Shown here: piece after piece, positions 4,038 to 58,281 of the stretch | Layout of the letters: each line of letters begins with the position of its first letter | Numbering within the stretch: the stretch's first letter is position 1 | NCBI RefSeq assembly: GCF_003018255.1 | Contig: NZ_CP027440.1 | Direction: 5' to 3' (one strand) | Source: Escherichia coli | Lineage (GTDB): Bacteria > Pseudomonadota > Gammaproteobacteria > Enterobacterales > Enterobacteriaceae | DNA length: 64,000 nucleotides | Program-made: the position numbers and the translations under genes | The notes under the pieces: generated by a model | Databases searched by the model: none | What the model was told of the DNA's origin: nothing | What the model saw: only the letters and a program-made list of their open reading frames with translations

Positions 4038-4796
4038 TCACGCCACCTCAATCTCCATCCCATCAAACCCCGCCTCAAACCCCGATGGTAGCGCGTTTTC
4101 CATCAGCCACGCATCAAACTGATGGCTGATATGGGTCAGAATCACCCGCGGCGAGCGGATAACCTGATTCAGCGCAAGCACGGTATTTAAATCACAGTGA
4201 TTACGCGGTGCATCCTCGCGCGGCGGGTGGCTGCAATCAATCACCATTACCTGCGGCTGATTATTGCGTAAAAATTTCAGCGTTTTTTCCGGCAGGCCTG
4301 CGGTGTCAGATAGCCACGCCACCCGGCTGTGCGCCGTTTCCAGTAAATAGCCGAAAGTGAGTTTTGAGTGGTTGAGCGGTAGCGGCGTGACCTGTAATCC
4401 CTGCAAATCAAACATCACAAATGGCTCCACCGTGTGGCTGAAATCAAGCAGGCCCGAATGTTTGAATAGATCGTCGCAGCCCTGTTCATCCGGCGGGCCG
4501 TAGACCGGGATCTGATCGCCCACGCCCCAGCGCAGCGGAAACAGCCCCTGCACGTGATCCATATGGTAGTGCGTCAGCAAAAACTGCTGGAACGATCCGG
4601 GCGACCAGCGATCGGCGAGATCGTGCCGCCCGGCGTCGATCAGGGTGATCGCGTCGTTAAACTTCACGACGCCGCTGCATGGCTGGCGGCGATACTGCGG
4701 TGAGCGCCGCGCTCTGACGCAGGCCACGCACTCACAGCCCCATGCGGGAACGCCCTGTGCGCCGCCAGTGCCAGTAAGTGTGAGGGTCAGGCTCAT
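4038..4796 (-). CDS. phnP: phosphoribosyl 1,2-cyclic phosphate phosphodiesterase (metallo-beta-lactamase fold)
   Basis: 252-aa ORF with HYHMDH motif; last gene of the phn operon. Confidence 0.9.
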
Positions 4797-4797
4797 G

Positions 4798-5232
4798 TTA
4801 CAGCACCTTGGTGAAGCGGAAGTGGCTCTGCTCGTAGCCTTCGCGCAGGTAAAATCGGTGCGCGTCGTGGCGCTTCACGTTGGTGGAAAGCTCAGTCATT
4901 TCGGCCCCGGCCTGGCGGGCTTCTTCTTCTGCCCATGCCAGTAATTTGCTGCCGACATTCAGACCGCGCGCCTGCGGCATCACCACCAGTTCCTGAATTT
5001 CGCCGATCCAGTTGACATGATGCAGATGAAACTGCAAATGCAGGCCGATCATGCCGACAACTTCGCCATCCAGCAGCGCCAGTTGGTAGCGCATGTTCGG
5101 ATCGCGCAGATTGGCGTTAAACCCCACGCGAAACGCCTGGTGGTCAAACTCCGCCTGTTTTAGCTCACAAATCAGCGCGTAAACTGCGTCGGTGTCGTAC
5201 TGCGTAGCCGGGCGAAGCTCACAAGCAGGCAT
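4798..5232 (-). CDS. phnO: aminoalkylphosphonate N-acetyltransferase (GNAT)
   Basis: 144-aa ORF, GNAT-like, phn operon synteny. Confidence 0.85.
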
Positions 5233-5776
5233 GGTGTTTCTCCTTCTGATGAATCAGCGTCAGCAACTTGTCGACCGACTGGCGCAGGCTGCCGTCATTA
5301 TTGAGCGTAAGACAATCCTGAGGAGTATAGCGGGCAGCGCGCGCCAGCCGGGCGTTAATTTCACTGGCATTTTCACGACCACGGTTTTCCAGGCGCTGGC
5401 GCAGGATCTCTGGCGAAACCTGTAAACAAACGGGCAGCAGCGCCGATTGATAGCGCGCCCGCGCCTGCGGCAGATGGGCGCGTGAGCCGTTGACCACCAC
5501 GTCAAATCCAGCGTGCAGCCAGAGGTCAATCTCGACGCCGACGCCATAATACAGACCGTTAGCGTGCCAGCTTAAGGCCAGAAGGTTCTGCCCCGCGCGG
5601 GTAAAAAACTCCTGCTCGCTCAGGGCGATATGGTTTTCACTTCCGGCGCTGGCGGCGCGCGTGATGTAGCGATGCGCTACCAGTAGCTGAGTTTGTTCCC
5701 GCTGGCGGAGTTCCGTCAACAGACTGTCTTTTCCGGAGCCAGAGGCCCCCATTAACCAAATCAGTTTTCCCGTCAT
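5219..5776 (-). CDS. phnN: ribose 1,5-bisphosphate phosphokinase
   Basis: 185-aa ORF with P-loop GASGSGKDS; phn synteny. Confidence 0.9.
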
Positions 5777-6912
5777 CAGAACACCCTTTTACCCTGACGC
5801 CAGACGTGGTCGATATGAATGTGATTGCCCTTGCGATGCGCCAGCACCAGGTCGGCGCGTTTGCCCTCGCCAATCACCCCGCGATCCTGAAGATTAAGCG
5901 CCTGCGCCGGATTTTTAGTCACCAGCTTCACCGCCTGCGGCAGCGTAAAGCGGTTGCTCTCGTCATCGGCGACGCGAAATGCCGCATCGAGCAGGCTGGC
6001 GGGGTAGTAGTCGGAAGAGAGGATATCCAGCAGGCCAAGCTGCGCCAGTTCACTGGCCGCCACGTTGCCGGAGTGCGAACCGCCGCGCACGATATTCGGT
6101 GCGCCCATCAGCACGTTCATGCCATGCTTGCGCGAGGCTTCTGCCGCTTCGAACGTGGTGGGAAATTCGGCGATTACGCTGCCAAGTTGGTGAGATTCAG
6201 CAACGTGGGCGTGCGTGGCGTCATCGTGGCTGGCGAGCGCAATGTGTCGCGCGCGGCACATTGCGGCGATGGTTTCGCGATTTGGCTGCGACCAGCGTGC
6301 GGCGAGCGCCAGCTGCTCTTCTTCATACTGCTGCATCTGCGCTTCGGTGAGCGAGTATTTGCCCTGATAATATTCGCGATACTTCTCGCGGTTAGCGAAC
6401 TGGCGCTGGCCCGGCGAGTGATCCATCAGCGACACCAGCGTCACCGGTTCGCGCTGCACCAGTTTTTCAAACAGCGGCAGCGTGGTGTGATGCGGCAGTT
6501 CGCAGCGCAGATGCAGACGGTGCTCGGCGCGGTTGACGCCGCGTTTCTGCGTCTCTTCGATGGCGTTGATCATCTTCTCCAGATTCTCCAGCCGATCGCC
6601 GCCGTCGCGCACGTCGCCAATCGCCACCGCGTCCAGCACGGTGGTGATGCCGCTCGCCACCATCAGCGCGTCGTGGCTACTCATTGCCGAGTGGGCGGGC
6701 CAGTCCACTTTTGGACGCGGGGTGAAGAATTTATCCAGATTATCGGTATGCAGCTCAATCAGCCCCGGCAGCAGCCAGCCACCTTCGCCGTCCATCGCTT
6801 CCGGCTGGCGGCTCTGGCTTTCGGCAAAGGCGCGAATTTTGCCATCCTGTACTTCCAGTGAACCGTGCACCACTTCGTTTTCCAGCACCAGTTTGACGTT
6901 ATTGATAATCAT
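5776..6912 (-). CDS. phnM: amidohydrolase-family RPnTP diphosphatase
   Basis: 378-aa ORF, amidohydrolase-like; phn synteny. Confidence 0.9.
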
Positions 6913-7589
6913 GAAGAGACTCCCATTGGGTGCAGGCGGTCGGCGACGTCATTGCGTACGGCTTCGTCATGGAAGATACCGACGATGGCCGCGCCACGGG
7001 CTTTGGCTTCGCGAATTAATTCCACCACCGCGGCGCTGTTTTTAGCGTCCAGCGAGGCGGTGGGTTCATCCAGCAGCAGAATCGGATAGTCGACGATAAA
7101 GCCACGGGCGATGTTGACGCGCTGCTGTTCGCCGCCGGAGAAGGTCGATGGTGCCAGGTGCCACAGGCGTTCAGGCACGTTCAGGCGCGTCAGTAATCGG
7201 GCGGCTTTAGCGGCGCAGGCTTCACGCGGTACGCCGGTATCGAGCAGAGGCTGCATCACCACTTCCAGTGCCGAAATACGCGGGATGACGCGCAGAAACT
7301 GGCTCACCCAGCCGATGGTGGTTTTGCGGATCTCCACCACTTTGCGGGCTGGCGCGGTGACCAGGTCTACCCATTCCTCACCGTGTTTGATCTGGATTTG
7401 CCCTTCGTCGGGCAGATAGTTGGCGTACAGCGAGCGCAGCAGGGTTGATTTTCCGCTGCCGGAGTGGCCGTGAAGCACCACGCATTCGCCTGCGTTGACG
7501 GTGAGCGAGGCACGTTGTAAGACGGGCAGGCGCACGCCGTTTTGCTGATGCAGGATGAAGGTTTTACTGACGTTTTGTACGTTAATCAT
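6909..7589 (-). CDS. phnL: C-P lyase complex ABC-type ATPase
   Basis: ORF track 6909..7703; start taken at [11 protein letters not shown] (226 aa) because the upstream extension runs into a REP cluster; Walker [10 protein letters not shown]. Confidence 0.85.
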
Positions 7590-7609
7590 TTTTCGCCTCG
7601 TGGTTCGGG

Positions 7610-7696
<87 letters not shown>

Positions 7697-7699
7697 GGC

Positions 7700-8458
7700 T
7701 CAATTCTGCAAAACCGATGACACCAGCAGTTGTGTATACGGATGGTGCGGGTCGTCGAGCACGCGGTCGGTTAACCCACTCTCCACCACTTTCCCTTGCT
7801 TCATTACCAGCAAACGGTCCGCCAGCAGACGGGCGACGCCTAAATCGTGGGTGACAATCACTACCGCCAGGTTAAGCTCCATCACCAGACCGCGGAGCAG
7901 GTCCAGCAGGCGCGCCTGTACCGACACATCCAGCCCGCCAGTGGGTTCATCCATAAACACCAGCTTCGGATGCGTCACCAGGTTGCGGGCAATCTGCAAA
8001 CGTTGCTGCATGCCGCCGGAAAAGGTGGTCGGCAGGTCGTCGATCCGGTTGGCGGGAATCTCCACCTCTTCCAGCCATTTCTGCGCGGTGGCGCGAATAT
8101 CGCCGTAATGACGCGCTCCGGTTGCCATCAACCGTTCGCCGATATTGCCGCCTGCCGACACCTGGCGGCGCAGGCCGTCAAGCGGATGCTGATGCACCAC
8201 ACCCCATTCGGTGCGCAGCAGGCGACGGCGGTCGGCCTCGCTCATCGCGTACAGCGAACGGTTCTCGTAGCGAATTTCCCCTTGCTGTGGTGTCAGGCGG
8301 GCGGAAATTGATTTCAGTAGCGTGGTCTTCCCGGAACCGGACTCCCCAACAATGCCCAGAACTTCTCCCGGCCATAAATCAAAAGAGACATCGCTAAAGC
8401 CTTTGCCCGGCGCGTAAAGGTGGGTCAGGTTATTGACCGAAAGTAACGGTTGATTCAT
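7700..8458 (-). CDS. phnK: C-P lyase complex ABC-type ATPase
   Basis: ORF track 7700..8488; start at MNQPLLSV (252 aa); Walker [10 protein letters not shown]. Confidence 0.9.
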
Positions 8459-9300
8459 TGGTTTTTTGCCTCGCTCTGTTGGCGGCAATAATCGGTATCG
8501 GAGCAGACAAACATGCGGTTTCCGGCGTCATCCAGCACCACTTCATCAAGATAGCTGTGGGTCGATCCGCAGATGGCGCACGGCTCATTCCACTGCTGAA
8601 CGGTGAACGGGTGATCGTCGAAATCGAGGCTTTCCACGCGGGTAAACGGCGGCACCGCATAGATGCGCTTCTCGCGCCCCGCGCCGAACAGTTGCAGGGC
8701 GGGCATCATGTTCATTTTCGGGTTATCAAATTTCGGGATCGGCGACGGGTCCATTACGTAGCGCCCGTTTACCTTCACCGGATAGGCGTAGGTGGTGGCG
8801 ATATGACCGAAGCGGGCGATATCTTCATACAGCTTCACCTGCATCACGCCGTACTCCTCCAGCGCGTGCATGGTGCGGGTTTCCGTTTCGCGCGGCTCGA
8901 TAAAGCGCAGCGGTTCGGGGATCGGCACCTGGAAAATAATGATCTGATCTTCGGTCAGCGGCGTTTCGGGGATGCGGTGGCGCGTCTGGATAAGCGTCGC
9001 ATCGTCCGTACGTTCAGTGGTGTTTACCCCGGTCACGCGCTTAAAGAAGTTACGGATCGACACCGCGTTGGTGGTGTCGTCCGCGCCCTGGTCAATCACC
9101 TTCAGCACATCGCTTTCGCCAATCACGCTGGCGGTAAGCTGTATGCCGCCGGTTCCCCAGCCGTAGGGCATCGGCATCTCGCGCCCGCCAAACGGCACCT
9201 GATAACCGGGGATCGCCACCGCTTTTAAGATGGCGCGGCGGATCATGCGTTTGGTCTGCTCGTCGAGGTAGGCAAAGTTGTAGCCGCTCAGATTAGCCAT
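8455..9300 (-). CDS. phnJ: C-P lyase catalytic subunit (radical SAM-like, Cys-rich C-terminus)
   Basis: ORF track 8455..9489; start at MANLSGYNF (281 aa); C-terminal CxxCx..C cluster. Confidence 0.9.
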   Translation of the reverse strand: MANLSGYNFAYLDEQTKRMIRRAILKAVAIPGYQVPFGGREMPMPYGWGTGGIQLTASVIGESDVLKVIDQGADDTTNAVSIRNFFKRVTGVNTTERTDDATLIQTRHRIPETPLTEDQIIIFQVPIPEPLRFIEPRETETRTMHALEEYGVMQVKLYEDIARFGHIATTYAYPVKVNGRYVMDPSPIPKFDNPKMNMMPALQLFGAGREKRIYAVPPFTRVESLDFDDHPFTVQQWNEPCAICGSTHSYLDEVVLDDAGNRMFVCSDTDYCRQQSEAKNQ

Positions 9301-10357
9301 GGTTCTGCTCCTGTTGCAGACGTTTGAGTAGCTCCAGTTCGGCCTGGAAATCGACGTAGTGCGGGAGTTTAAGGTGCGAGACAAAGCCTGCGGCTTCGAC
9401 GTTGTCGGCATGCGCCAGCACGAACTCTTCATCCTGCGCCGGGCCTGTCGCGTGCTCGCCGTACTCCGGGGCTTGTAGAGCGCGGTCAACCAGCGCCATC
9501 GCCATCGCTTTGCGCTCGCTCATGCCGAACACCAGCCCGTAGCCGCGCGTGAAGTGCGGCGGCTCATCCGGCGGGTCGATAAAACCGTTGACCATTTCAC
9601 ATTCGGTCATCAGCAGTTCGCCGACGTTCACCGCAAATCCCAGCTCTTCCGGCACAATCGACACGTCGATATAGCCGCTGCGGATTTCGCCTGCGAACGG
9701 ATGATTGCGTCCGTAACCACGCTGGGTGGAGTAGGCCAGCGCCAGCAAATAGCCTTCGTCGCCGCGCATTAATTGTTGCAGGCGGGAGGAGCGTGAGCAG
9801 GGGTAAACCGGCGGCGTGCGGGTGATGTCGTCCGGCTGTGCGCCGCTATCTTCTTCAAACTTCGCCAGCCCCTGACGCGCCAGCAGGCTGAAAACGTGCG
9901 GCGACGGCTGTTGTTCGCTGTCGGCTGTGGTCAGCGTCGGCGCTTCGCCGTTTGCCAGCAGGGTGAAATCGAGCAGGCGATGGGTGTAGTCGTAGGTTGG
10001 GCCAAGCAGCTGGCCGCCGGGAATGTCTTTATAAACCGCCGAAATACGGCGTTCGAGCCGCATCTCCGTGGTGTCGAGCGGCTCGCTCACCGCCAGCTTT
10101 GCCAGCGTCGTGCGGTAGGCGCGCAACAGGAAAATCGCTTCAACGTTATCGCCGCTGGCCTGTTTCAGCGCCAGTGCCGCCAGCTCACGGTCGGCAATGC
10201 CGCCTTCGGTCATCACGCGATCTACCGCGAGGTTAAGCTGCTGTTCAATCTGGGCGACGCTCAGTTCGGGTAAATCGGTATCGCCCCGGCGTCGGCTCTC
10301 TTGCAGGGCGTGGGCGGCGTCGATCGCCTTCTCGCCCCCTTTCACGGCAACGTACAT
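9293..10357 (-). CDS. phnI: C-P lyase core complex subunit PhnI
   Basis: ORF track 9293..10477; start at MYVAVKGG (354 aa); ATGA overlap with the phnH stop. Confidence 0.9.
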   Translation of the reverse strand: MYVAVKGGEKAIDAAHALQESRRRGDTDLPELSVAQIEQQLNLAVDRVMTEGGIADRELAALALKQASGDNVEAIFLLRAYRTTLAKLAVSEPLDTTEMRLERRISAVYKDIPGGQLLGPTYDYTHRLLDFTLLANGEAPTLTTADSEQQPSPHVFSLLARQGLAKFEEDSGAQPDDITRTPPVYPCSRSSRLQQLMRGDEGYLLALAYSTQRGYGRNHPFAGEIRSGYIDVSIVPEELGFAVNVGELLMTECEMVNGFIDPPDEPPHFTRGYGLVFGMSERKAMAMALVDRALQAPEYGEHATGPAQDEEFVLAHADNVEAAGFVSHLKLPHYVDFQAELELLKRLQQEQNHG

Positions 10358-10941
10358 CAGCACACCTCCACATGAGTGGTTCGCGGGATAGCCAGCAGGC
10401 GCTCGCCGCAGGTCAGGATCAGGTCGATGCCGAGCGGGAACGGGTGCGGGCGCTCGGTAAGTTCGTGCAGAATGCACTCTGGCAGCTGCGGGGCGATCAT
10501 TCGTTCTTCGGCAATACCCGCGCCAGTAAGGCGCAGCATGCGCCCGCCGCTCAGGCTGACGACCTGTAAAATCAGCGTCGCGCCCGCTTCTGGCGCAACA
10601 GCGGTGCCGCTGGAAAGGGCGTTAAGCTGTTCGCTGGAAATCGCCTCATCCGTTACCGCGAAGGTCGCCAGTTCCGGCTGATTGACCAGCGGCGCGTTGG
10701 TATGAAAACGCAGGCTCTGGCTGACGATATCGTTACTTAATGGCGCAGAAAGCCACACCGGCGTGTCGTTATCGGCCAGCGTCAGCAGCACGCTGGTGGT
10801 GGCGATATTCAGCGGCTGCCAGCCGCGTTTGAGCTGATGCAGGGCGACAATCACGCCCGGCTCGCTCATGGCTTTTAACAGGCGACGAAAACTGTGCTGG
10901 GCATCCTGCACGGGAAGCATAAAAGCGGTTTCCAGGGTCAT
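10357..10941 (-). CDS. phnH: C-P lyase core complex subunit PhnH
   Basis: 194-aa ORF, phn synteny. Confidence 0.85.
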
Positions 10942-11390
10942 GCGTTATCTCCGCGAACCATCGTAAAGAAGTCGACCCGGCTGGCGTTTACTTCGGCCTG
11001 GCGTGCGGCAATGCGTGCCATACGGTCAGCGTTCAGCGGGGCAATAAGAGTTTCTGATAAGTTTTGAAAATGGCGGGTTTGCTGCATCAGCGCGTCAATC
11101 AGCGCGCAGCGTTCGGCGTGCTGTTTGTCGCGCCCCAGCACCCAGCTGTAGCCGAGCGTGCCGTCAGTCAGGCGTACGGCGGCGCGGGTGAGCGTGGCGT
11201 CGCCAGCAAAAAAGCGTTCGCCGGTGCCACCCATCCGCGCCTGAATCTGCACCAGGCCGGTTTCAGCGGCGCGGATTACTTCATAGTCGGCAGTGATGTT
11301 CAGCGCCTTCAGGCGGGCTGCCAGTTCAGCCGGTTGGCTGTGTGCCAGTATGGACATCCAGTGCTGGCGGGTCGCGGTATCTGCGTGCAT
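10938..11390 (-). CDS. phnG: C-P lyase core complex subunit PhnG
   Basis: 150-aa ORF, phn synteny. Confidence 0.85.
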
Positions 11391-12116
11391 TCAGTGCTCC
11401 ATAGTGAATTCAATCATGTCGGCGCGCGTCAGGCTGACGGAGTACTCCGCCGGGCTGCTTTCACCGTCACGGTGGTTAAGGGTGCGCACGCACAGCAGCG
11501 GCGACATATTCGGGATTTCAAGACGCTGGCACTCTTTGGCCTGGGCGCGGCGGGCGCTGATCCGCGTCTGGCTGCGGCGCAGCGCAATCCCCGTTTGCTC
11601 GCGCAGAAAATCGTGCAGCGAGCCGCTGTCGAAGCGTTGCAGCGTCGGCCAGAGGGTGAGGTCCGCAAAGTAGTGGTCGATTAAACAGAGCGCGACGCCG
11701 TTGACCCGGCGCAGGGTGCGCAGGTGGATAACGTTCTCGCCCTCGGTTATCCCCAGCGCGTCAGCGACGTGACCGGAGGCCGGGCGCAGCACAGACAGCA
11801 GTTTTTCGCTGGTGGGATGGCTGCCCTGATCCAGCAGGTTCTGGCTAAAACGCGCCTGGGCGTTGAGCGGGTAATCGAACGGGCGCATCAGCACCAGCAC
11901 GCCGACGCCCTGACGGCGCTGTACCCAGCCTTTTTCCACCAGTTGGTCGATGGCGCGGCGCAGGGTGTGGCGGTTCACCTCAAAGCGCGCCGCCAGTTGC
12001 TGCTCGGCGGGAAGATAGTCGCCGCAGCGGTAGTGTTGACGAAGCTCCTGCTCAAGTTTTGCGGCTATCTCCTGATAGCGTGTTGGGTAGCTGGTCGGAT
12101 GTGTAGACAAGTGCAT
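11391..12116 (-). CDS. phnF: GntR-family transcriptional regulator of the phn operon
   Basis: ORF track 11391..12125; start at MHLSTHPT (241 aa); N-terminal HTH. Confidence 0.85.
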   Translation of the reverse strand: MHLSTHPTSYPTRYQEIAAKLEQELRQHYRCGDYLPAEQQLAARFEVNRHTLRRAIDQLVEKGWVQRRQGVGVLVLMRPFDYPLNAQARFSQNLLDQGSHPTSEKLLSVLRPASGHVADALGITEGENVIHLRTLRRVNGVALCLIDHYFADLTLWPTLQRFDSGSLHDFLREQTGIALRRSQTRISARRAQAKECQRLEIPNMSPLLCVRTLNHRDGESSPAEYSVSLTRADMIEFTMEH

Positions 12117-12136
12117 AGATATCAATGCCTCGCTTA

Positions 12137-12916
12137 TCAGATAAAGTGCTTACGCAACCGTTGAGAGAGGAAATCCAGCAGGCTGACCGTGACGATAATC
12201 AGCACCATCAGGGCGCAGGTTTGCTGGAACTGGAAACCGCGAATCGCTTCCCACAGGGTGACGCCGATCCCGCCCGCGCCGACCATGCCAACAACGGTGG
12301 CCGAACGGACGTTGGATTCGAAGCGATAGAGGGAGTAGGAGATCAGCAGCGGCATCACCTGCGGCAGCACGCCGTAGAGGATCTCTTCGAGCTTGTTGGC
12401 ACCAGTGGCGCGAATACCTTCCACCGGGCCGGGTTCAATTGCTTCTACCGCTTCGGAAAGCAGTTTGGAGAGCACGCCGGTGGTGTGGATAAACAGCGCC
12501 AGTACGCCAGCGAACGGACCGAGACCGACGGCGACCACGAACAGCATGGCGAAGACCATCTCGTTAATGGCGCGGCAGGCGTCCATCAGGCGGCGAACGG
12601 GCTGATACACCCACCACGGCACCAGGTTTTCAGCGCTCATCAGGCCGAAGGGGATGGAGAGAACGACTGCCAGCGCGGTGCCCCAGACGGCGATTTGCAG
12701 CGTGACGGCCATTTCGGTGAGGTAATCCTGCCATTGGCTGAAATCGGGCGGGAAGAAGTCGGCGGCGAAGGTTGCCATGTTGCCGCCGTCTTTGATCAGC
12801 GTAAGCGGGGCCATTTCCGCGCCCTGCCACGAGACGACCAACACGGCGAGAACAATGGCCCAGCTCAGAAGCGAGAACCAGCTGCGCTTGGGTGGGGCGA
12901 TGGTGATGGTTTGCAT
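12137..12916 (-). CDS. phnE: phosphonate ABC transporter permease, uninterrupted reading frame
   Basis: ORF track 12137..12979, multi-TM protein; start taken at MQTITIAPP because the upstream extension runs into REP; no frameshift seen. Confidence 0.8.
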
Positions 12917-12929
12917 GTTTGGCTCCGGT

Positions 12930-13018
12930 CTGTAGGCCGGATAAGGTGCTTGCACCGCATCCGGCATCAACGTCTGCACATTGTCGGATGCGACGCCGGG
13001 GCGTCTTATCCGACCTAC
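12930..13018. repeat. REP pair between phnE and phnD
   Basis: tgtaggccggataaggtg...cggatgcgacgccggggcgtcttatccgacctac palindromic units. Confidence 0.7.
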
Positions 13019-13021
13019 GAT

Positions 13022-14038
13022 TTACTGCACCGCTTTACTCACCGAACTCATCGCGCTTAACGCGTTGTTCAGGCGGTCCAGGTCATCCAGTTGCGCCTGA
13101 ATGGCGCTGGTTTTTGCCAGCTTGTCCTGCTCATTCAGCCCTTTATTGCCTTTCACGCCCTGCATCTCTTTAAACAGCGCGAGCTGGCGAATCGGCACCA
13201 GTTGCAGGTCGCTGGAGGCGCGGAACGGGGCCCAGCCCAGGCGTTCCAGCACCGCTTTCTCTTCCGGCGTTTTGCCGTAGTTCATAAAGAAGTCGTAGAT
13301 CTTGTCTTTGGTGGTTTCGGACAGATTTTTGCGCCAGACGATCGGATCGCCTGGGATCAGCGGCGATTTCCAGATCACCTTCAGTTCTTTGAGCTTCTCC
13401 GGTGCGGAGGTTTTCAGCTTGTCGAGGTTTTCGGTGTTGTTGGTCGCCACATCCACCTGTTTGTTGGCGACGGCCAGCGCGTTGGTTTCATGCCCGGCGT
13501 TGACGGTGCGCTTGAAGTCGCTGGCGGAGATATTGTTTTTGGCGAAGACGTAGTAGCCGGGGACGAGGAAGCCAGAGGTGGAGTTAGGATCGCCATTGCC
13601 AAAGGTGAGATCTTTACGCTTCGCCAGCAGATCGTTCAGGTTGTTGATCGGACTGTCTTTGTTGACGATCAACACGCTCCAGTAACCTGGCGATCCATCC
13701 GCCGCGACCGTCTGGGCGAAGACCTGACCGTTGGCGCGATCCACCGCTTCCATCGCCGACAGATTGCCGTACCAGGCGATATCCACTTTGTTGAAGCGCA
13801 TTCCCTGGATAATGCCCGCGTAGTCCGGGGCAAAGAAGGCGTTGACCTTTACGCCCAGCTTCTTCTCCATATCCTGTAAGAACGGCGTCCATTGCGGTTT
13901 CAGGTTTTGCTGTGATTCCGTTGAAATAATGCCGAAATTCAGCGCCTTTTCCTGCTCTTCGGCGTGCGCCGGGCTTAACAGGGTGCTGAGGCTGAACATG
14001 CTGGTGAAGGCCAGCGAGGCAATTATCTTAGCGTTCAT
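13022..14038 (-). CDS. phnD: phosphonate ABC transporter periplasmic binding protein
   Basis: 338-aa ORF with signal peptide; phn synteny. Confidence 0.9.
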   Translation of the reverse strand: MNAKIIASLAFTSMFSLSTLLSPAHAEEQEKALNFGIISTESQQNLKPQWTPFLQDMEKKLGVKVNAFFAPDYAGIIQGMRFNKVDIAWYGNLSAMEAVDRANGQVFAQTVAADGSPGYWSVLIVNKDSPINNLNDLLAKRKDLTFGNGDPNSTSGFLVPGYYVFAKNNISASDFKRTVNAGHETNALAVANKQVDVATNNTENLDKLKTSAPEKLKELKVIWKSPLIPGDPIVWRKNLSETTKDKIYDFFMNYGKTPEEKAVLERLGWAPFRASSDLQLVPIRQLALFKEMQGVKGNKGLNEQDKLAKTSAIQAQLDDLDRLNNALSAMSSVSKAVQ

Positions 14039-14062
14039 TCGTTTTCCTCAATGATGGGGATG

Positions 14063-14851
14063 TCAGGCAGCTTTCGCGTTCTCTTCAATGCGATTAATGC
14101 TGCGGTAGAGATGGTCAAAACGTTCGTTATCAAACAGTTGGCTGCTGCCGTCGTAAAAGACGTGCCCCTGACGCAGGGCGACGATGCGTTCGCAGTAGCG
14201 CAGGGCGTAATCCACCTGATGTAGCGTGACGACCACGGTGATGCCGTCGTTCTGGTTGATGTCGCGCAGGGTGTCCATCACGATGCGCGCCGATTCCGGG
14301 TCCAGCGAGGCGATGGGTTCGTCCGCCAGAATCACCTTCGCCTGCTGCATCAGCGCGCGGGCAATCGCCACACGCTGTTGCTGTCCGCCGGAGAGGGTGG
14401 AAACGCGCTGATGGGCAAAGTGCACCATGCCAACGCGGGTCAGCGCCTGTAACGCGCGCTGTTTCTGCTCGCGGGTGAAGTAGCTAAAACAGGTGCGCCA
14501 GAATGGCGTGCTGCCGAGCGCGCCAATCAGCACGTTCTCCAGTACGCTCAGGCGATTCACCAGGTTGAATTGTTGGAAGATGTAGCCGGTATTGGCGCGG
14601 CTTTTGCGGATATCGCGGGCCAGGCGGCCTTCGCGCTGGACTGTGCGGCCCAGCAGCTCGATATGGCTACCGGCAGATTTATCGCCGGTAATCAAACCGC
14701 TTAAGTGACGTAAAAGGGTGGATTTGCCGGAACCCGACGGCCCAAGCAGAGCCACCATTTCACCGTGATGAATGTTCAGATCAACCGCGTGCAGCGCCTG
14801 ATGCTGATTGAAGGTTTTGGCGAGCTTCTCGACACGGATAATCGTTTGCAT
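14063..14851 (-). CDS. phnC: phosphonate ABC transporter ATP-binding protein
   Basis: 262-aa ORF, Walker [13 protein letters not shown] signature LSGGQQQR. Confidence 0.9.
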
Positions 14852-14983
14852 GATGCAGCCTCCCTAAAAAAGTGGCTCCATCGTGGCGGATTATTGTGAC
14901 GATTTTGTTAACTAAAAGTGACTAACGGATGAAGAGTTAACGAGATTTCGATGACAGTGCGGGAGGGCGGCCCTCCCGGCGGG

Positions 14984-15427
14984 TTAGTGCGTTGGTTGTT
15001 GTTTGACGACATTAATCATCCACGGTACGCCAAATTTATCGGTGACTTTGCCGAAGCCATGCGCCCAGAAAGTTTCCTGCCAGGCCATTTCGATTTTTCC
15101 GTTAGCTGCAAGGTTATCAAACCAGCGTTTTCCTTCTTCGACCTGTTGCGAATCGAGCACTAGCGTAAAGCCGGAGTAGCTGGCTTTTCCTGACGGTATA
15201 GCATCGCTCATCATGATGTCGCTTCCTGCAATGCGCACGTTGGCATGAGCGATGGCGGTATCGGGAAATTGCATTCCGGAAGGGCAGTTCTCGGCGCTGT
15301 CCTGCGCTGATTTCGGCATTTCGCCGAAGCTGATTTTATAGAGCAGTTCCGCGCCCAACGTACGTTGATAATAGGCAATCGCGTCGGAACAGTTACCGGC
15401 AAAAGAGAGGTAGGGACTTAACGGCAT
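14984..15427 (-). CDS. yjdN: glyoxalase/bleomycin-resistance-fold protein PhnB
   Basis: 147-aa ORF; position upstream of phnC. Confidence 0.8.
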   Translation of the reverse strand: MPLSPYLSFAGNCSDAIAYYQRTLGAELLYKISFGEMPKSAQDSAENCPSGMQFPDTAIAHANVRIAGSDIMMSDAIPSGKASYSGFTLVLDSQQVEEGKRWFDNLAANGKIEMAWQETFWAHGFGKVTDKFGVPWMINVVKQQPTH

Positions 15428-15492
15428 GATGGTGACCTCAGTTAAGAGAAGCCCGTTAAGTGTAGTTCGAAATTTATACAGATGAGAGGGAA

Positions 15493-15571
<79 letters not shown>

Positions 15572-15586
15572 CCGATCACAATACAA

Positions 15587-21193: not shown

Positions 21194-21304
21194 GCTGAAA
21201 CGGATGGCCTGATGTGACGCTGTCTTATCAGGCCAATTGAACTCTTAAGGTTCACTTAATCTCTGACGCGCATACTCTCCTCCAGGTTAACGGAGGAGAG
21301 TGCA

Positions 21305-21394
21305 ATGAAAAACCGTGTTTATGAAAGTTTAACTACCGTGTTCAGCGTGCTGGTGGTCAGCAGCTTTCTTTATATCTGGTTTGCCACGTTCTGA
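21305..21394 (+). CDS. pmrR: 29-aa membrane peptide PmrR, convergent with and overlapping the basS 3' end
   Basis: atg at 21305 to tga at 21392-21394 encodes MKNRVYESLTTVFSVLVVSSFLYIWFATF; not in ORF track because shorter than 60 aa. Confidence 0.7.
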   Translation: MKNRVYESLTTVFSVLVVSSFLYIWFATF

Positions 21395-22470
21395 TCTTTC
21401 TTCAGCCGTACCCAGGCCCGCGTGCCGGAAGTCTCTTGCCGGTTTTGCAGGAAAAACTGCCCGTGATGCAACTGTGTAATGCGGCTGACAATACTTAACC
21501 CCAGACCAATCCCGCCATAACGGCTGTCCATACGTACAAACGCTTTACTCAACTCCCCGCATTTACTCTCATCAATACCCGGTCCTTCATCTTCAACGGC
21601 CATGACCGCTCCGCCATCTTCTTGCAGCTTAATCATAATGTTGCTGCCTTGCGGGCTGTAACGATGGGCGTTTTCTACCAGGTTTCGCAATAACATCCGC
21701 AGCAGGGTTGCATCACCCTGAACGGTGATGTCGGCGGCGCTCTCTGGCAATAGCAGGTTTTGCTGTCGCTGGTCGAGCATGGTACTGAGTTCGTCATACG
21801 AGGGGAGAATGACATCTTCCAGCAGTTTTACATGTTGATAATTACCGGAAGAAAATGACTGTCCGGCACGCGCCAGTTGCAGCAGCTGGGAGACACTCTC
21901 CATCATCTGATCAAGTCGAGCCACTAACGGTGCTACATCAATGTGATGCGTTTTCGCCAGCAGTTCCAGATGCAAACGCACCCCCGCCAGTGGCGTTCGC
22001 AGTTCGTGCGCGACGTCAGCGGTAAACAACCTTTCGTTATCCAGCGTGCTGGTCAGGCGACTGACCAGATCGTTCAACGCCGAAACCACCGCTTCGATTT
22101 CGAGGGTGGCGCTGTGAATGGCAATAGGCGTTAAGTTGTCGGCGGTGCGCGCTTCCAGCTCTTTTTGCAGCTCCGCCAGCGGCCGGGTGATGCGGCGTAC
22201 CGCCTGATAGCAGATAAATAGCGTCAGGCTGACCATAAAGACGCCGGGGACGATCAGGCTGGCGACCGCCTCGCGGATCTCACGCATGATGTGGCGATCG
22301 TTGTTGCGATTGTCGCGTAGCGCCTGCTCAAACAGCTGAATCTGCTCGGTACTTTCATGCCATAGCCAGAAGACGCTGATCAGCTCAAACACCAACAAAA
22401 TGGCCCCAATGGTCAATATCAGCCGTTGGCGCAGCGATATTGGTCGGCGCAGAAAACGCATCAGATTCAA
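21370..22470 (-). CDS. basS: sensor histidine kinase BasS/PmrB
   Basis: 366-aa ORF with H-box HELRTPL and ATPase domain; upstream of basR. Confidence 0.9.
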   Translation of the reverse strand: MNLMRFLRRPISLRQRLILTIGAILLVFELISVFWLWHESTEQIQLFEQALRDNRNNDRHIMREIREAVASLIVPGVFMVSLTLFICYQAVRRITRPLAELQKELEARTADNLTPIAIHSATLEIEAVVSALNDLVSRLTSTLDNERLFTADVAHELRTPLAGVRLHLELLAKTHHIDVAPLVARLDQMMESVSQLLQLARAGQSFSSGNYQHVKLLEDVILPSYDELSTMLDQRQQNLLLPESAADITVQGDATLLRMLLRNLVENAHRYSPQGSNIMIKLQEDGGAVMAVEDEGPGIDESKCGELSKAFVRMDSRYGGIGLGLSIVSRITQLHHGQFFLQNRQETSGTRAWVRLKKDQNVANQI

Positions 22471-31111: not shown

Positions 31112-32164
31112 ATGATGTCTGCACCCAAAATTACATTTATCGGCGCTGGTTCGACGATTTTCGTTAAAAATATTCTTGGTGATGTGTTCCATCGCGAGGC
31201 GCTGAAAACGGCGCATATTGCCCTGATGGACATTGATCCCACCCGCCTGGAAGAGTCGCATATTGTGGTGCGCAAGCTGATGGATTCAGCAGGGGCCAGC
31301 GGCAAAATCACCTGCCACACCCAACAGAAAGAAGCCTTACAGGATGCCGATTTTGTCGTGGTGGCATTTCAGATTGGCGGTTATGAACCTTGCACGGTGA
31401 CTGATTTCGAGGTCTGTAAGCGGCATGGTCTGGAACAAACCATTGCCGATACGTTGGGGCCGGGCGGTATTATGCGCGCGCTACGTACCATTCCGCATCT
31501 GTGGCAAATTTGCGAGGACATGACGGAAGTCTGCCCCGATGCCACCATGCTCAACTACGTTAACCCAATGGCGATGAATACCTGGGCGATGTATGCCCGC
31601 TATCCGCATATCAAACAGGTAGGGCTGTGCCATTCGGTGCAGGGAACGGCGGAAGAGCTGGCGCGTGACCTCAATATCGACCCGGCTACGCTGCGTTACC
31701 GTTGCGCAGGTATCAACCATATGGCGTTTTACCTGGAACTGGAGCGCAAAACCGCCGACGGCAGTTACGTGAATCTCTACCCGGAACTGCTGGCGGTTTA
31801 TGAAGCAGGGCAGGCACCGAAGCCGAATATTCATGGCAATACTCGCTGCCAGAATATTGTGCGCTACGAAATGTTCAAAAAGCTGGGCTACTTCGTCACG
31901 GAATCGTCAGAACATTTTGCTGAGTACACGCCGTGGTTTATTAAGCCAGGTCGTGAGGATTTGATTGAGCGTTATAAAGTACCGCTGGATGAGTACCCGA
32001 AACGCTGCGTCGAGCAGCTGGCGAACTGGCATAAAGAGCTGGAGGAGTATAAGAACGCCTCCCGGATTGATATTAAACCGTCACGGGAATATGCCAGCAC
32101 AATCATGAACGCTATCTGGACTGGCGAGCCGAGTGTGATTTACGGCAACGTCCGTAACGTATAG
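31112..32164 (+). pseudogene. melA: alpha-galactosidase, 5' fragment (about 349 codons) truncated by prophage insertion
   Basis: GH4 N-terminus MMSAPKITFIGAGS; the frame ends ...IYGNVRNV* exactly where prophage-end sequence begins; full-length MelA is recalled as about 451 aa. Confidence 0.8.
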
Positions 32165-32260
32165 CGCGGCGATTTTTTTGATACCGATTTGCATTTCATT
32201 TGATACCGCTGAAAAACGCCGATACGCAACTTATTTGATACTAAATCGGCGCTTTTCTTT
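32165..32260. repeat. prophage right-end terminal region with three direct TTTGATAC(C/T) repeats; candidate transposase-binding sites
   Basis: Repeats at 32177, 32199 and 32234 plus a GAAAAACGC motif, immediately inside the melA junction. Confidence 0.45.
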
Positions 32261-32287
32261 TGAGTTTTAGAATGAGTTTTTAAGCGC

Positions 32288-33025
32288 TCATTCACTCTCT
32301 TTCAAACCAGTTTTAACTGTTTGTGGTTTTGGGTAAGGCTGGACTTTGAATAGCTTTGTGTTGAGGCGTTTTCTGGCCCTCTTGTTCAGAAACCGGATGT
32401 AACGAAACTGTCGGAACTTATGCACACTGGCTCTGTCGATATTAGCCCTCAGATGTTCACCTCGTTGTCCGCCTCGTTTAATGGCACTCCTGCAAATCTC
32501 GTGATACCACTCGCCATCAAGTTCATAGAATGTTGATTCATGGCTGCCTACATAATCAAAATTGCTTGCCTGATACACGACACCAAGACAGCCACAACGC
32601 TCATCTGCAAACGACTGAACCCACTGTACCTGCGGATAAAGCTGCCTGATTAGCTTGAGCGCGTAACTGATTGCCCTTGATTCGGAGTTTCTCGGCATAC
32701 AGTCATGCATCCATAGCCGGTTAAGCTCCATATATTCTCGGTTCTGCGTACCCGTTACGACGCGTGCACCACTGTTTGGGTTAAGGGCGTAACCCCATTG
32801 CATTACGCCAACAAGTTCCCGTTCTGAAAATATACCCAGATGAAGGTAGGAATTATTTACGAAACGGTGGCTGTAATGTTTATTGACGATAACCAGTCTG
32901 GCCAGCCAGCAACTTATTGTCTCAACCCGCAACTCACGGGAGCCATAACCAACGATATTGTCGTTATAGCGAATAAGTTCAGGCGTGCTGATGATACGGG
33001 ATGTGACTTGCTTTCTGTTCCCCAC
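32288..33025 (-). CDS. mom: Mom-like DNA modification (adenine carbamoylmethylation) protein
   Basis: 245-aa ORF overlapping the 3' end of a com-like gene, last gene before the prophage end as in Mu; true start probably internal. Confidence 0.6.
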
Positions 33026-33179
33026 GACAGGATTTCCTTGTGTATGTGGGGTGCTCTGTGGCGCTCGGAGATGTGATTTGATTGAGGGTTTTACAGCGCG
33101 GACATTTTACTTCCAGATAACTGAAACTGGCCCGTGCCAGTAGCTTATTGCAGTGTCGGCACCGTATGTTTCGATACAT
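32979..33179 (-). CDS. com: Com-like zinc-finger translational activator of mom
   Basis: [14 protein letters not shown]...EVKCPRCKT... aligns with Mu Com (IRCKNCNKLL...IRCPRCK) from memory; overlaps the mom start. Confidence 0.7.
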
Positions 33180-33585
33180 GGCCGCATAACCTCCTGCTTT
33201 GTTGTTGATGCCTTTCTCATGCAATCGATCGACAAAAACGATCGATTCGATTTGTTTAATTGATACAACAAATAGATTTAAAAGTCATCAACAATGATTC
33301 AGGGCGGTGATTATTTACTTAAAGAAACGAAGAGTTAGGTGGTGAAAACGATCATAAAATGATCATTTTATTGACTTTTTATACAGTGAAGGTAGGATCG
33401 CGCGTATATGTAGTATGTTTCAAATCAACAGGATACTACATAAAAGGGAAACCCAGCATAGCTGGAACTATGCTGGGTCAATCTGTAAAAACTTGCATCA
33501 ATGCTTTACTTCGAGCTCGTGGCGTATCCTATGATATTCCCCGGTCTCCTGTAAAGCAGAGATGCATAAAAAGGAGATCTTTATC
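33180..33585. promoter_or_regulatory. AT-rich divergent control region upstream of com-mom with five GATC sites (33227, 33240, 33350, 33361, 33396)
   Basis: GATC density well above the roughly 1 per 256 bp expected by chance; position matches the methylation-sensitive region upstream of mom in Mu. Confidence 0.45.
33452..33477 (-). terminator. 10-bp-stem hairpin followed on the minus strand by a T-rich run
   Basis: cccagcatag ctggaa ctatgctggg; minus-strand downstream sequence tttcccttttta. Confidence 0.45.
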
Positions 33586-33756
33586 ATGGATAAAGAGCCT
33601 GTTTGCCCTGCCTGTAAGACTCCCTTACAGCTCATCTATCGCCGTTCTCGATCTCAAAATGGCAAGACATACAAACCAAAAAATGCTTCCTGTTTCAGGA
33701 TGCTGATATGTCCTGCCTGTTCTCCCCGGAGGGAAAATACACAAAACGTGCATTAA
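33586..33756 (+). CDS. small zinc-ribbon protein (CPAC...CPAC), the only plus-strand gene in the prophage part
   Basis: ATG 33586 preceded by AAGGAG at 33571-33576; MDKEPVCPACKTPL...MLICPACSP; ORF track 33562..33756. Confidence 0.45.
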   Translation: MDKEPVCPACKTPLQLIYRRSRSQNGKTYKPKNASCFRMLICPACSPRRENTQNVH

Positions 33757-33794
33757 CAAATTCACCCGGCAGGGAAACCTGCCGGTCGGTATTG

Positions 33795-34040
33795 TTACAT
33801 CATAGTACCGTCAGTTCCGGGTTGAACCGGCTCTGGTTGCTCTACGGGTTGAGGCTCATTTTCCGTGCTGTTTTCAGCCGGAGAACGACCAACCATTCGG
33901 GCCAGCACTTCATCAACATATGCGTCGATTTGTGCCTCAAAATCCTTGCGAACCTGCGCCTTCAGCACGCGGTTCACTTCTTCAGAATAAAGTGCCTGTT
34001 TGACAAGCTCTTCAGTAACCGTGCCTTTAATCTCTGGCAT
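33795..34040 (-). CDS. hypothetical acidic 81-aa protein
   Basis: ORF with AGGAG RBS upstream of ATG; no recognisable motif. Confidence 0.45.
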   Translation of the reverse strand: MPEIKGTVTEELVKQALYSEEVNRVLKAQVRKDFEAQIDAYVDEVLARMVGRSPAENSTENEPQPVEQPEPVQPGTDGTMM

Positions 34041-34075
34041 GAATATTCTCCTTTCCTTTTCTGGTTCACAAAAAA

Positions 34076-34255
34076 TTAAATCTGACCGGAGTCTTTCGGC
34101 TGCGGCATTACAGCACCGCTTTTTATCTTTTCCTCGGCAGCTGCATCAATTTTATTTCGAAAATAATTGCGAATAATTTTATAACCACCGCTGACAAGCA
34201 ACAGACAACAAACCACCGTGCAGAAATACAGCAGGCAGACGTTTATATATGTCAT
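34076..34255 (-). CDS. hypothetical 59-aa single-pass membrane protein
   Basis: MTYINVCLLYFCTVVCCLLLVSGGYKIIRNYF... read from the minus strand, GAGG RBS; below the ORF-track length cutoff. Confidence 0.4.
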   Translation of the reverse strand: MTYINVCLLYFCTVVCCLLLVSGGYKIIRNYFRNKIDAAAEEKIKSGAVMPQPKDSGQI

Positions 34256-34312
34256 ATAAGCCTCACTCTTATTAACTGATGTTACAGCCGGATAAATTCC
34301 CGGCCGTCACGA

Positions 34313-36361
34313 TTATGCCGCAGGGGTATTAACCTCAAGGACAACGCTCTCAAAAGACACGCCATAAGTTGCCCCTTTGGTGACATCTGTCAGTGTCAGC
34401 GTATCTTTGGCAGGGGAAAGTGCATCTTTCACCATCTGGAATGCCTGGCCCGGAGTGCCATCCAGCACAGGCGTTACCTGGGCACTTCCCGCCGTAAACT
34501 TCAGGACAAGTGTATGCCACTGGTTATTGTAGGCTCCAAATGATCCCAGTTTCGTATTCCCCCCTGTTTTATGGTGCATCAGATTTAACTGGCCGCCTGT
34601 TGTCTGGAGATAATACGCCATCAGGAACGGTGTGCCTGTACCACTCATGGTTACACCTTCCGGGACCGTATCGGTGTGGAGGTAAATACCCAGAGCAAAC
34701 TGGCCTTCTTTTACTTCACCTGACAGACGGAATTTACAGGTCAACTGACCACCATGCTTCAGAAGTTCACCGGCTGCATCAGTTCCATGGGTAAGCGTCC
34801 AGGTTTTTCCGCTTTGTTTGGATACGGTCAACGCTTTACCTTCGTCCGTCAGCTGGATTGTACCATCTGTAATTTTCCAGCCCTGAGCCGGGGCTTCTCC
34901 TGCTGATGCTTTAAGTGAAAGCAGCGTACGGAGTGACGGGGATGTCGGATGGGGGGACTCACTGCCTCCTGGCTGACTACCTGTCGGCGCTTCCGGTTTC
35001 CCACCCGGCGCGGGCTGAGGCAGGGCTTCACCATCAGGGGCCACACCGGCAATAAATGCAGAGGTCAGACCTGCATATTTAAGAATTGCTGATGCAAAAC
35101 GATCTGAGACCAGAAAACGGCGCGCCCAGGAGCTAAAATGGGTTGCCCTGGATGCTGTTGTCCAGTTGCCATCTCCCCGTGATTCCGCACCATAATACCC
35201 GGCAGAAGCGATATCCGGGTCGTGCTCCGGCAGGTTGGTCGCGGTTTTATTACCGAACTCATCGTGCATCAGTGGAACAAAGTGAATGTTCTCGGAAGCC
35301 CGGTTTTTATATCCGCTATAAATGGTTTCATATGCCGCCGGGTTCTTCTCTTTCCAGTCATAGGTTGTGTCACCACATAACCACGGCACACTGTCTGATG
35401 AACCACCAATACACTGACCGGAGAAAGCACCAAGATCCGCACGGAATTTTTTCACCATCGCAGTAAACTGGGCACCATGCTGGGCCGGGGTCGCTTTAAG
35501 GTCTCCTTCCCCCTGAATCCATACGACAGATAACAGCACATTCTTTGGATTCGCCTCAAGTGCCGCTTTAGTTCGACTGACAAGATCCTGATACAGTGGG
35601 GTATCCACTCCCCAGCGTAGTGACGCCTCGGCTGCACCACTTGCCGGATCGAATGAGCCAACTGCGCCGGTTGTAAAAGCAGAGCCGCCACGGGCACAGG
35701 GAACCAGTAAAATCCCGGCATCAGCAGGAATCACCGGTAATACTTTTTTCGCAATATGAAGTCCCTGCCCCACACAACCATACTGCCCTTTTTTCAGGTC
35801 TGCTTTTGGATGGTTCAGCAGACTCATATTCTGAACATCATGAAGGCAGTGATCTGCTGGAATGATTTCATTGTATTTGCAGGGAATACCTCCGGGGGTT
35901 TGTGTATTCCTGCGTGCCAGCTGCATAATACGTGGATCAGGACGATCATAAGAATCCGGAAGGGGCAACCCTTCACCATAAGATGAAGCATTGGACTGGC
36001 CGGCTATAACAATCACGTAATACCAGGAAGGGGAGCTGGAAGCAGTTTCATTTCCTGACGGACGGGTATGTGTTTCAGCATTATCCCAGTCTGACGGTTC
36101 AGCAGTACCGGCAACATCAGCACTTAACGGAATGACCGCACCAATACCCGCTCCGGTAATTTCCACACTCGGATCACCGGATACTGGCCTTACCCACAGG
36201 CAATCCCGTGTATTAAAACTGATGAGACAGTCAGCAAATGTCATTCCTCCTTTTGTTTCGGCCGGAGGAAAGGGAGCCTCAAGAAATGCCGCTGTACCAC
36301 CGGAAACTTTAACAGTAAAGTTTCCGGGCATTGATGATAGTTGAACCCATTTGGACGTCAT
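34313..36361 (-). CDS. SGNH/SASA-type sialate O-acetylesterase-like protein with C-terminal beta-rich putative carbohydrate-binding domain (resembles prophage NanS-p family)
   Basis: 682-aa ORF; IAGQSNASSYG esterase signature, Pro-rich linker, about 200-aa C-terminal domain; no signal peptide. Confidence 0.55.
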   Translation of the reverse strand: MTSKWVQLSSMPGNFTVKVSGGTAAFLEAPFPPAETKGGMTFADCLISFNTRDCLWVRPVSGDPSVEITGAGIGAVIPLSADVAGTAEPSDWDNAETHTRPSGNETASSSPSWYYVIVIAGQSNASSYGEGLPLPDSYDRPDPRIMQLARRNTQTPGGIPCKYNEIIPADHCLHDVQNMSLLNHPKADLKKGQYGCVGQGLHIAKKVLPVIPADAGILLVPCARGGSAFTTGAVGSFDPASGAAEASLRWGVDTPLYQDLVSRTKAALEANPKNVLLSVVWIQGEGDLKATPAQHGAQFTAMVKKFRADLGAFSGQCIGGSSDSVPWLCGDTTYDWKEKNPAAYETIYSGYKNRASENIHFVPLMHDEFGNKTATNLPEHDPDIASAGYYGAESRGDGNWTTASRATHFSSWARRFLVSDRFASAILKYAGLTSAFIAGVAPDGEALPQPAPGGKPEAPTGSQPGGSESPHPTSPSLRTLLSLKASAGEAPAQGWKITDGTIQLTDEGKALTVSKQSGKTWTLTHGTDAAGELLKHGGQLTCKFRLSGEVKEGQFALGIYLHTDTVPEGVTMSGTGTPFLMAYYLQTTGGQLNLMHHKTGGNTKLGSFGAYNNQWHTLVLKFTAGSAQVTPVLDGTPGQAFQMVKDALSPAKDTLTLTDVTKGATYGVSFESVVLEVNTPAA

Positions 36362-36460
36362 AATAATCAGCCTGTTCCTGAATAAACTGAATTATCATAT
36401 CCACAGACCGATAAACGCCATTTTGCGTTAATTCAGTAAAGGCCCAACAAAGAGAGCGTC

Positions 36461-37021
36461 TTATTTTTCCGAAACGCTCGCAGGATAATAACGATAAAGG
36501 GTTGAAAGACCGATATCAAAAATAAGTGCCACCTGTCTTCGACTGACACCCCCGGCCAGTAAACGCCCGACCTGCTCGTATTGTTCCTGCGTGAGACGGC
36601 GGGGTCTGCCGCCGGTTCGTCCCCTTTCACGGGCAGCTGCAAGACCAGCCCGTGTCCGTTCGACAATTAATTCACGCTCCATTTCTGCCAGCGCACCCAT
36701 TATGTGAAAAAAGAAACGCCCCATGGGGGTTGACGTATCAATGTTGTCAGTAAGACTACGAAAATTTATCCCCTGTTGCTGTAATTCATCTGTCAGCGCA
36801 ACAAGGTGGCGCATACTGCGCCCCAGCCTGTCCAGTTTCCAGACCATCAGTGTGTCACCGGGTTTTAGTTTCTTCAGTGCCCGCTTCAGTCCCGGCCGCT
36901 GTGTCGTTTTACCACTCATTTTGTCTTCAAAAATCTGCTCACATCCTGCACATTCCAGCGCATTTCTTTGTAAACCGGTGTTCTGGTCATTTGTTGATAC
37001 GCGTATATAGCCAATCAGCAT
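36461..37021 (-). CDS. gin: serine DNA invertase of the Gin/Hin/Cin/Pin family
   Basis: MLIGYIRVSTNDQNTGLQRNAL...GRFFFHIMGALAEMERELI aligns closely with Mu Gin (recalled); adjacent to the invertible segment. Confidence 0.9.
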   Translation of the reverse strand: MLIGYIRVSTNDQNTGLQRNALECAGCEQIFEDKMSGKTTQRPGLKRALKKLKPGDTLMVWKLDRLGRSMRHLVALTDELQQQGINFRSLTDNIDTSTPMGRFFFHIMGALAEMERELIVERTRAGLAAARERGRTGGRPRRLTQEQYEQVGRLLAGGVSRRQVALIFDIGLSTLYRYYPASVSEK

Positions 37022-37076
37022 GTATTTACCTTCCTTAAAAAGAGGTGAAAATGCCTTTTAAAACAGATATACGGTA

Positions 37077-37102
37077 TCCCTGAAAACCTCGGTTTACGGG
37101 AA
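37077..37102. promoter_or_regulatory. gix-like recombination site, gin-proximal (crossover core TC at 37089-37090)
   Basis: tccctgaaaacc tc ggtttacgggaa matches the gix/hix consensus TTATCCAAAACC TC GGTTTACAGGAA (recalled). Confidence 0.65.
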
Positions 37103-37471
37103 ACGGTAAATAAGGCTGCTGATGCCCTGCCATCGGGTGGAACCGCCGTGGCAGCAAACAGACTCGCCACCCCAAGAAATATTAATGGCGTTCCTTTTGA
37201 CGGAACGCAGGATATCAACATCACGTCAGGAATGACGCAGTCAACCGCAGATGGCCGGTATGTACAGAATGTTCAGCTTGGAGCACAGAGCTATCATTCA
37301 CCCGGAGGCAATGAAATATCATGGAATTACAGCGCACCTTCCGGTTGTATGCTTTCCGGTATTAACGTGCAGGAAACCGGCTCCCGGTCTGCGGACAATA
37401 TCGGTGGGGTCTATTATCGCCCGGTTCAGATTTATATTAATAATGCCTGGAGAACGGTAAGTTCAGTGTAA
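37091..37471 (+). CDS. promoterless alternative tail-fibre C-terminal cassette (S'v-like) inside the invertible segment
   Basis: Open frame from the gix core: GLRETVNKAADALPSGGTAVAANRLATPRNINGVPFDGTQDINITSGMTQS... shares its first 50 codons with the expressed fibre then diverges; ORF track 37148..37471. Confidence 0.6.
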   Translation, partial: GLRETVNKAADALPSGGTAVAANRLATPRNINGVPFDGTQDINITSGMTQSTADGRYVQNVQLGAQSYHSPGGNEISWNYSAPSGCMLSGINVQETGSRSADNIGGVYYRPVQIYINNAWRTVSSV

Positions 37472-37505
37472 ACCACAGAAAAGGGTGCTGAATGCACCCT
37501 CTGAA

Positions 37506-38027: not shown

Positions 38028-38106
38028 TATTTCACCTTGTTTTTGTTGAAAAGACAAAATCATCATATATTTATTCAGATAATCTGTTTTTTGAACTACT
38101 GCACTT

Positions 38107-47163: not shown

Positions 47164-47171
47164 GCCTTACC

Positions 47172-50243: not shown

Positions 50244-50286
50244 ATTTGCCCTCCGCAGGGGCCGGGCCGTAAGCCCGGCTCACCGT

Positions 50287-58279: not shown

Positions 58280-58281
58280 CG

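Follow-up and report, generated by a model that had tools for sequence, protein, structure and literature searches.

PhnCDE is an ABC importer for phosphonates through which phosphate is also taken up, and the story of the 8-bp sequence in the phnE gene of Escherichia coli K-12 has been known since 1991. RefSeq flags the K-12 gene as a pseudogene ("frameshifted"), and its deposited translation contains three internal stops, running out of frame past approximately residue 141 and meeting a stop near residue 190. K-12 is cryptic for phosphonates owing to an 8-bp insertion in phnE (PMC6469041), and its revertants have lost GCTGGCGT at ORF positions 407-414 through slippage (PMC6469041, PMC4759930), a deletion that arises "with a high frequency" (PMC4759930, PMC6469041). 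The function of PhnE has been demonstrated experimentally for such K-12 revertants and for E. coli B. Among solved structures, the closest to PhnE by sequence is MetI, the permease of the methionine ABC importer (PDB 3dhw, 6cvl), with which it shares the type I ABC-importer permease fold (PhnE residues 125-254 aligned with MetI residues 80-210, E = 6e-6). The similarity is only distant, the substrate is a different one and the number of N-terminal helices differs; a sequence search at E<=0.001 found no solved structure of PhnE itself.

The window analysed here, a stretch of 64,000 nt of E. coli chromosomal DNA, carries phnE on the minus strand at 12137..12916, as a CDS of 780 nt with an ATG start, encoding 259 aa plus a stop and containing no internal stops. 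An earlier note on this DNA had described an uninterrupted phnE frame at 12137-12979. An ORF of exactly this extent does exist (it is the maximal minus-strand ORF across phnE, 280 aa from a GTG, and it is uninterrupted), but its upper limit is not that of the gene, which starts at 12916, and the strand, which the note had left unstated, is the minus strand. The placement of the true start at this ATG is based on homology and on the RefSeq annotation of the near-identical strain 104, and the start of the E. coli B gene lies likewise. The 63 nt upstream of the ATG (12917..12979) are noncoding, because they fall within the phnD-phnE spacer, which carries a REP pair. This spacer (12917..13021, with no strand assigned) holds the palindromic pair together with the spurious ORF extension from the GTG at 12979, and it includes a REP-type element recognized by the Rfam model naRNA4 (12935..13015, plus strand, 68.7 bits). 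It differs by 1 nt from the spacer of K-12 and from that of E. coli B. In other strains the length of the spacer varies, as judged from matches that fall into two pieces and together account for 91% of the query.

The K-12 frameshift is located in a tract with a period of 8 nt, which in the window consists of two units (12496..12511, minus strand; 16 nt, CDS nt 406-421, codons 136-141). On the coding strand, the tract reads GCTGGCGT ACTGGCGC in both the window and strain 104, as compared with GCTGGCGT GCTGGCGT GCTGGCGC in K-12 MG1655 (three units, 24 nt) and GCTGGCGT GCTGGCGC in E. coli B (two perfect units). In the window and strain 104, repeat unit 2 opens with a synonymous G>A change (GTG>GTA, Val), and thereby only 6 nt of the direct repeat are perfect, instead of 7 nt. 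The earlier note had described K-12 phnE as a pseudogene with an 8-bp duplication, had read the frame in the window as continuous and had proposed a pairwise alignment with K-12 as a check. Alignment of phnE from the window, K-12 MG1655 and strain 104 revealed a single indel, namely 8 extra bases in K-12, and no frameshift in the window. The absence of the extra unit and of any other indel relative to K-12 bears out the continuous frame, and the description of the K-12 allele agrees with the alignment, the RefSeq annotation and the published account (PMC6469041). The window therefore does not carry the K-12-type cryptic allele, as defined by three units, a 24-nt tract and a +8 frameshift.

Apart from the tract, the alleles are very similar. 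K-12 phnE is the same gene at the same position and, with its extra unit removed, is 96.0% identical to the window at the nucleotide level, with 30 synonymous codon differences and one non-synonymous, so that the sole residue by which the window protein differs from the repaired K-12 PhnE (259 aa) is I21V. The E. coli B gene resembles that of the window in its locus, its 780-nt CDS, its two repeat units and its phnD-phnE-phnF context, and its protein again differs by I21V alone; the two genes are separated by 27 nucleotide substitutions, 26 of them synonymous, one being the G>A change that interrupts the direct repeat. Since short tandem repeats can in principle be miscalled, a three-unit tract might have been collapsed to two during assembly. 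We regard this as having practically no chance of being correct: the tract is merely 16-24 nt long, far below read length, and the two-unit allele with its G>A marker recurs in strain 104 and in about 400 other complete genomes.

The product of the window gene is 100% identical to the strain 104 protein WP_001193496.1. It matches the NCBIfam PhnE equivalog TIGR01097 with 311.3 bits (cut-off, 216.7) over residues 16-258, corresponding to profile positions 8-251 of 252, and it contains a Pfam BPD_transp_1 domain (PF00528) at residues 88-258 (91.8 bits). By its equivalog score, which rules out a chance ORF, the predicted phnE is a real gene. The full-length family match is accompanied by a permease domain with an EAA loop, and the gene adjoins phnC and phnD and is followed downstream by C-P lyase genes. 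In ABC permeases of the BPD_transp_1 type, the ATPase subunit docks at the EAA loop. In the window protein the 20-residue motif occupies positions 166-185, i.e. 3' of the repeat tract (codons 136-141), and because the loop lies downstream of the tract the extra K-12 unit is inactivating. The third GCTGGCGT unit of K-12 phnE removes the EAA loop together with the C-terminal membrane segments; the window lacks this unit.

Genes rich in GC often have a long ORF on the opposite strand, and phnE is no exception: a plus-strand ORF of 311 aa (12125..13060) runs antisense across all of it and exceeds the phnE ORF in length. That this ORF should be the real gene is next to inconceivable, given that it has no Pfam match at E<=0.1, that the product of the minus strand matches the PhnE equivalog over its full length, and that the minus-strand gene is annotated in every RefSeq genome examined. 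We therefore rejected the plus-strand ORF as a gene; in all likelihood it is a side effect of GC-rich coding sequence on the other strand.

The genes of the phn operon follow one another on the minus strand in the order phnC-D-E-F-G...P, from 14851 down to 4038. Upstream of phnE lie phnC (14063..14851), encoding the importer ATPase (262 aa, intact, of K-12 length; NF007438, 604 bits against a cut-off of 365), and phnD (13022..14038), encoding the periplasmic phosphonate-binding protein (338 aa, intact, of K-12 length; TIGR03431, 376.5 bits against a cut-off of 261), in which 336 of 339 positions are identical to K-12 when the stop codon is counted. Downstream, phnF (11391..12116) encodes the GntR-family repressor of the operon (241 aa, intact, identical to the K-12 protein; NF007486, 518.6 bits against a cut-off of 363). 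It is followed by the ten intact genes of the C-P lyase core and accessory enzymes, phnG-H-I-J-K-L-M-N-O-P (4038..11390), all of K-12 length and, like the preceding genes, on the minus strand. NCBIfam equivalogs identified phnG (10938..11390), phnH (10357..10941), phnK (7700..8458) and phnL (6909..7589). PhnI and PhnJ had no NCBIfam match and were assigned by Pfam instead, with 515 bits to the PhnI family (9293..10357) and 502 bits to the PhnJ family (8455..9300). The remaining genes were assigned to Pfam families, namely phnM (5776..6912) to Amidohydro (amidohydrolase family), phnN (5219..5776) to AAA_18/AAA_33, phnO (4798..5232) to GNAT and phnP (4038..4796) to Lactamase_B_2 (metallo-beta-lactamase fold). 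All of the phn family assignments exceed the curated cut-offs.

The limits of the phn genes in the window were transferred from the coordinates of strain 104. Each of the 14 genes, from phnC to phnP, has an ATG start, a terminal stop and no internal stops, and the lengths of their products (262, 338, 259, 241, 150, 194, 354, 281, 252, 226, 378, 185, 144 and 252 aa) equal those in K-12 and strain 104. The claim of the earlier note that the operon is complete, with every gene from phnC to phnP intact, accordingly holds at the sequence level, where 14 of 14 ORFs are in order and of full length. Over its 10,590 coding nt, the operon is 95.5% identical to that of K-12. Of the codons that differ, 394 do so synonymously and 66 non-synonymously, a ratio of approximately 6:1 that indicates purifying selection.

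Taken together, the locus is, with high probability, a wild-type open allele of phnE, encoding the permease of PhnCDE, within an otherwise intact 14-gene phn operon, and the strain is predicted to be Phn+. With two repeat units instead of three, the frame continues through the C-terminal half of the protein, including the EAA loop at residues 166-185, while a frameshift of the K-12 type at codons 136-141 would abolish all of PhnE downstream. Under phosphate starvation, the phnC promoter would be activated by PhoB, alkylphosphonates would be imported by PhnCDE, and phosphate would be released by the PhnGHIJKLM C-P lyase pathway together with PhnN, PhnO and PhnP. Since all 14 phn genes are intact, the strain should be Phn+ without a reversion event; both the use of phosphonates and the uptake of phosphate via PhnCDE are predicted to proceed without the reversion that K-12 needs.

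The expression of the operon depends in this scheme on the phnC promoter, whose Pho-box region (14895..14928, minus strand), as seen in the alignment with K-12, is a variant haplotype. It contains three substitutions relative to K-12 (CTGTTAG>CCGTTAG, AAT>AGT and AACC>AACA), one of them a T>C change that alters position 2 of the upstream CTGT half-site. The 121-nt stretch upstream of and into phnC has five differences from K-12 (95.9% identity) and is matched at >=99% by about 393 of 5,398 E. coli records, nearly all of the others sharing the K-12 sequence. The K-12 PhoB motif for phnC defined by ChIP-seq is ATTAACCAAATCGTCACA (PMC10294691). In the window this motif reads GTTAACAAAATCGTCACA, and the half-site cores TTAAC and CGTCAC are the same as in K-12. 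The TGTCA tract of the PhoB half-site is contacted in the major groove, and among the promoters tested in K-12 that of phnC was the PhoB target of lowest affinity (PMC4447250).

It might be argued from these substitutions, one of which falls within the TGT of the upstream half-site, and from the near-invariance of the promoter in the other E. coli records (95.9% identical to the window), that the frames of the operon are intact while an altered Pho box keeps its expression in this lineage low or absent. We consider such silencing very unlikely. The promoter-proximal ChIP-seq motif retains both of its half-site cores, and through the C>A substitution the spacer becomes more AT-rich and comes nearer to the consensus; moreover, the haplotype occurs in about 393 records and thus represents a stable lineage polymorphism. 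All 14 genes are open and display the synonymous excess described above. In addition, the affinity of PhoB in K-12 was tracked only by the time of onset, whereas the level of expression did not follow it (PMC4447250).

To place this allele among those of the species, we compared the repeat region with complete E. coli genomes, in which the alleles were counted indirectly, by sorting BLAST matches into identity bands and noting the span of the match in sampled rows. By this measure, about 81% of approximately 5,390 complete E. coli records carry a two-unit open allele and about 19% a three-unit allele of the K-12 type, although the collection is rich in laboratory derivatives of K-12, which inflate the three-unit share (~1,000 of ~5,390). 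When a 108-nt K-12 query was used, 1,001 records matched at >=99% (sampled rows spanning 108 nt, i.e. three units) and eight at 95-99%, the remaining 4,379 falling at 80-95% (sampled rows spanning 100 nt, i.e. two units). With the corresponding 100-nt query from the window, 999 records matched at 80-90% (sampled rows spanning 108 nt) and 4,338 at >=90% (sampled rows spanning 100 nt). The window 100-mer is matched at >=99% by about 404 of approximately 5,340 complete-genome records.

An open phnE is thus the majority state in E. coli; the window is ordinary in this respect and K-12 is the exception, an unusual strain because the frame is open in about 81% of complete genomes. The sequence of the window at this locus is less common. 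The 1.1-kb phnE region finds matches in 5,396 of 5,426 E. coli genomes, and because only 72 records match it at >=99% identity, the window represents a minority lineage at this locus. Searches of the literature turned up no relevant population survey of phnE alleles in natural isolates.

The three-unit allele is also found outside K-12. A "frameshifted" three-unit phnE is present in strain 33-6 from a broiler chicken and in strain D53-1 from a dog, and carriers of the allele include pork and human isolates; in addition, a single record, that of the human isolate FDAARGOS_1248, contains a tract of four units. To our knowledge, published accounts treat the OFF allele as a peculiarity of K-12. 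If this is indeed the accepted view, it would need revising, since the three-unit allele occurs in isolates of chicken, dog, pork and human origin. Nearly all of the three-unit alleles (1,001 of ~1,009) share a 108-mer identical to that of K-12, a pattern more suggestive of descent within a single clade than of switching that occurs often and independently.

Reversible ON/OFF switching of phnE in K-12 was reportedly described by Iqbal et al. in 2004. It may be asked whether the frame in the window is likewise open only because a slipped-strand switch, rapidly reversible, happens to be in its ON phase, cultures of the strain containing many OFF cells with three units, the more so as slippage at this tract is known from K-12, where 8 bp are frequently deleted (PMC4759930, PMC6469041), and as three- and four-unit alleles exist in natural isolates. 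We find this very improbable, because the tract of the window is interrupted, its perfect repeat being 6 nt instead of 7 nt, and because the distribution of the three-unit alleles, almost all on the K-12 108-mer, points mainly to inheritance in one clade. The expanded form of the window haplotype is also missing from the records: a synthetic three-unit query searched against all E. coli genomes found at best a 96.3% match, to an allele of the K-12 type, although this search has little power with regard to slippage, as three-unit alleles are nearly confined to one backbone. It is conceivable, albeit doubtful, that the synonymous G>A change (GTG>GTA) in unit 2 even stabilizes the ON state of phnE in its lineage (about 400 of ~5,340 records); by contrast, the K-12-like haplotype with a perfect repeat has expanded to three units in approximately 1,000 records and to four in one. 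If such stabilization were real, the tract would be a contingency locus on some backbones only.

An open phnE is the common and long-recognized wild-type state of a well-studied operon, and its presence in the window has little importance beyond correct annotation. It may be mildly useful to those who employ K-12 as a reference, since the three-unit frameshifted genomes, about 19% of the complete E. coli genomes in a collection enriched in K-12 derivatives, include animal and human isolates.

The phn operon lies within the gene order als - rpiB - yjdP - phnP...phnC - yjdN - yjdM - crfC - proP - basRS - eptA - adiC. The phn region (4038..15572) is more diverged from K-12 (95.6% nucleotide identity) than are its flanks (97.1-97.7%). 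A second REP-type element of the naRNA4 family (15492..15569, minus strand, 96 bits) is located between yjdN and yjdM, and in the yjdN-yjdM region the alignment with K-12 breaks, the K-12 sequence being longer by about 500 bp. Further along, a full-length match to the enterobacterial sRNA STnc630 (21236..21401, plus strand, 178.5 bits against a gathering score of 55) was found downstream of proP, where it overlaps the pmrR/pmrB end of the basRS region.

The window ceases to be colinear with strain 104 at position 32159 (junction 32159/32160), where a Mu-like transposable prophage is inserted into melA. The prophage occupies 32160..64000, i.e. at least 31.8 kb, and runs off the end of the window. 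It leaves a melA remnant (31112..32164, plus strand) in which the truncated ORF for alpha-galactosidase is only 350 aa long, as compared with the intact melA of strain 104 (1,356 nt, about 451 aa). Since melA is interrupted by the prophage, the strain is probably unable to use melibiose. Copies of this prophage with 99-100% identity occupy different positions on the chromosomes of other E. coli, and in phage records the homologous stretch is labelled "inserted Bacteriophage Mu-like phage".
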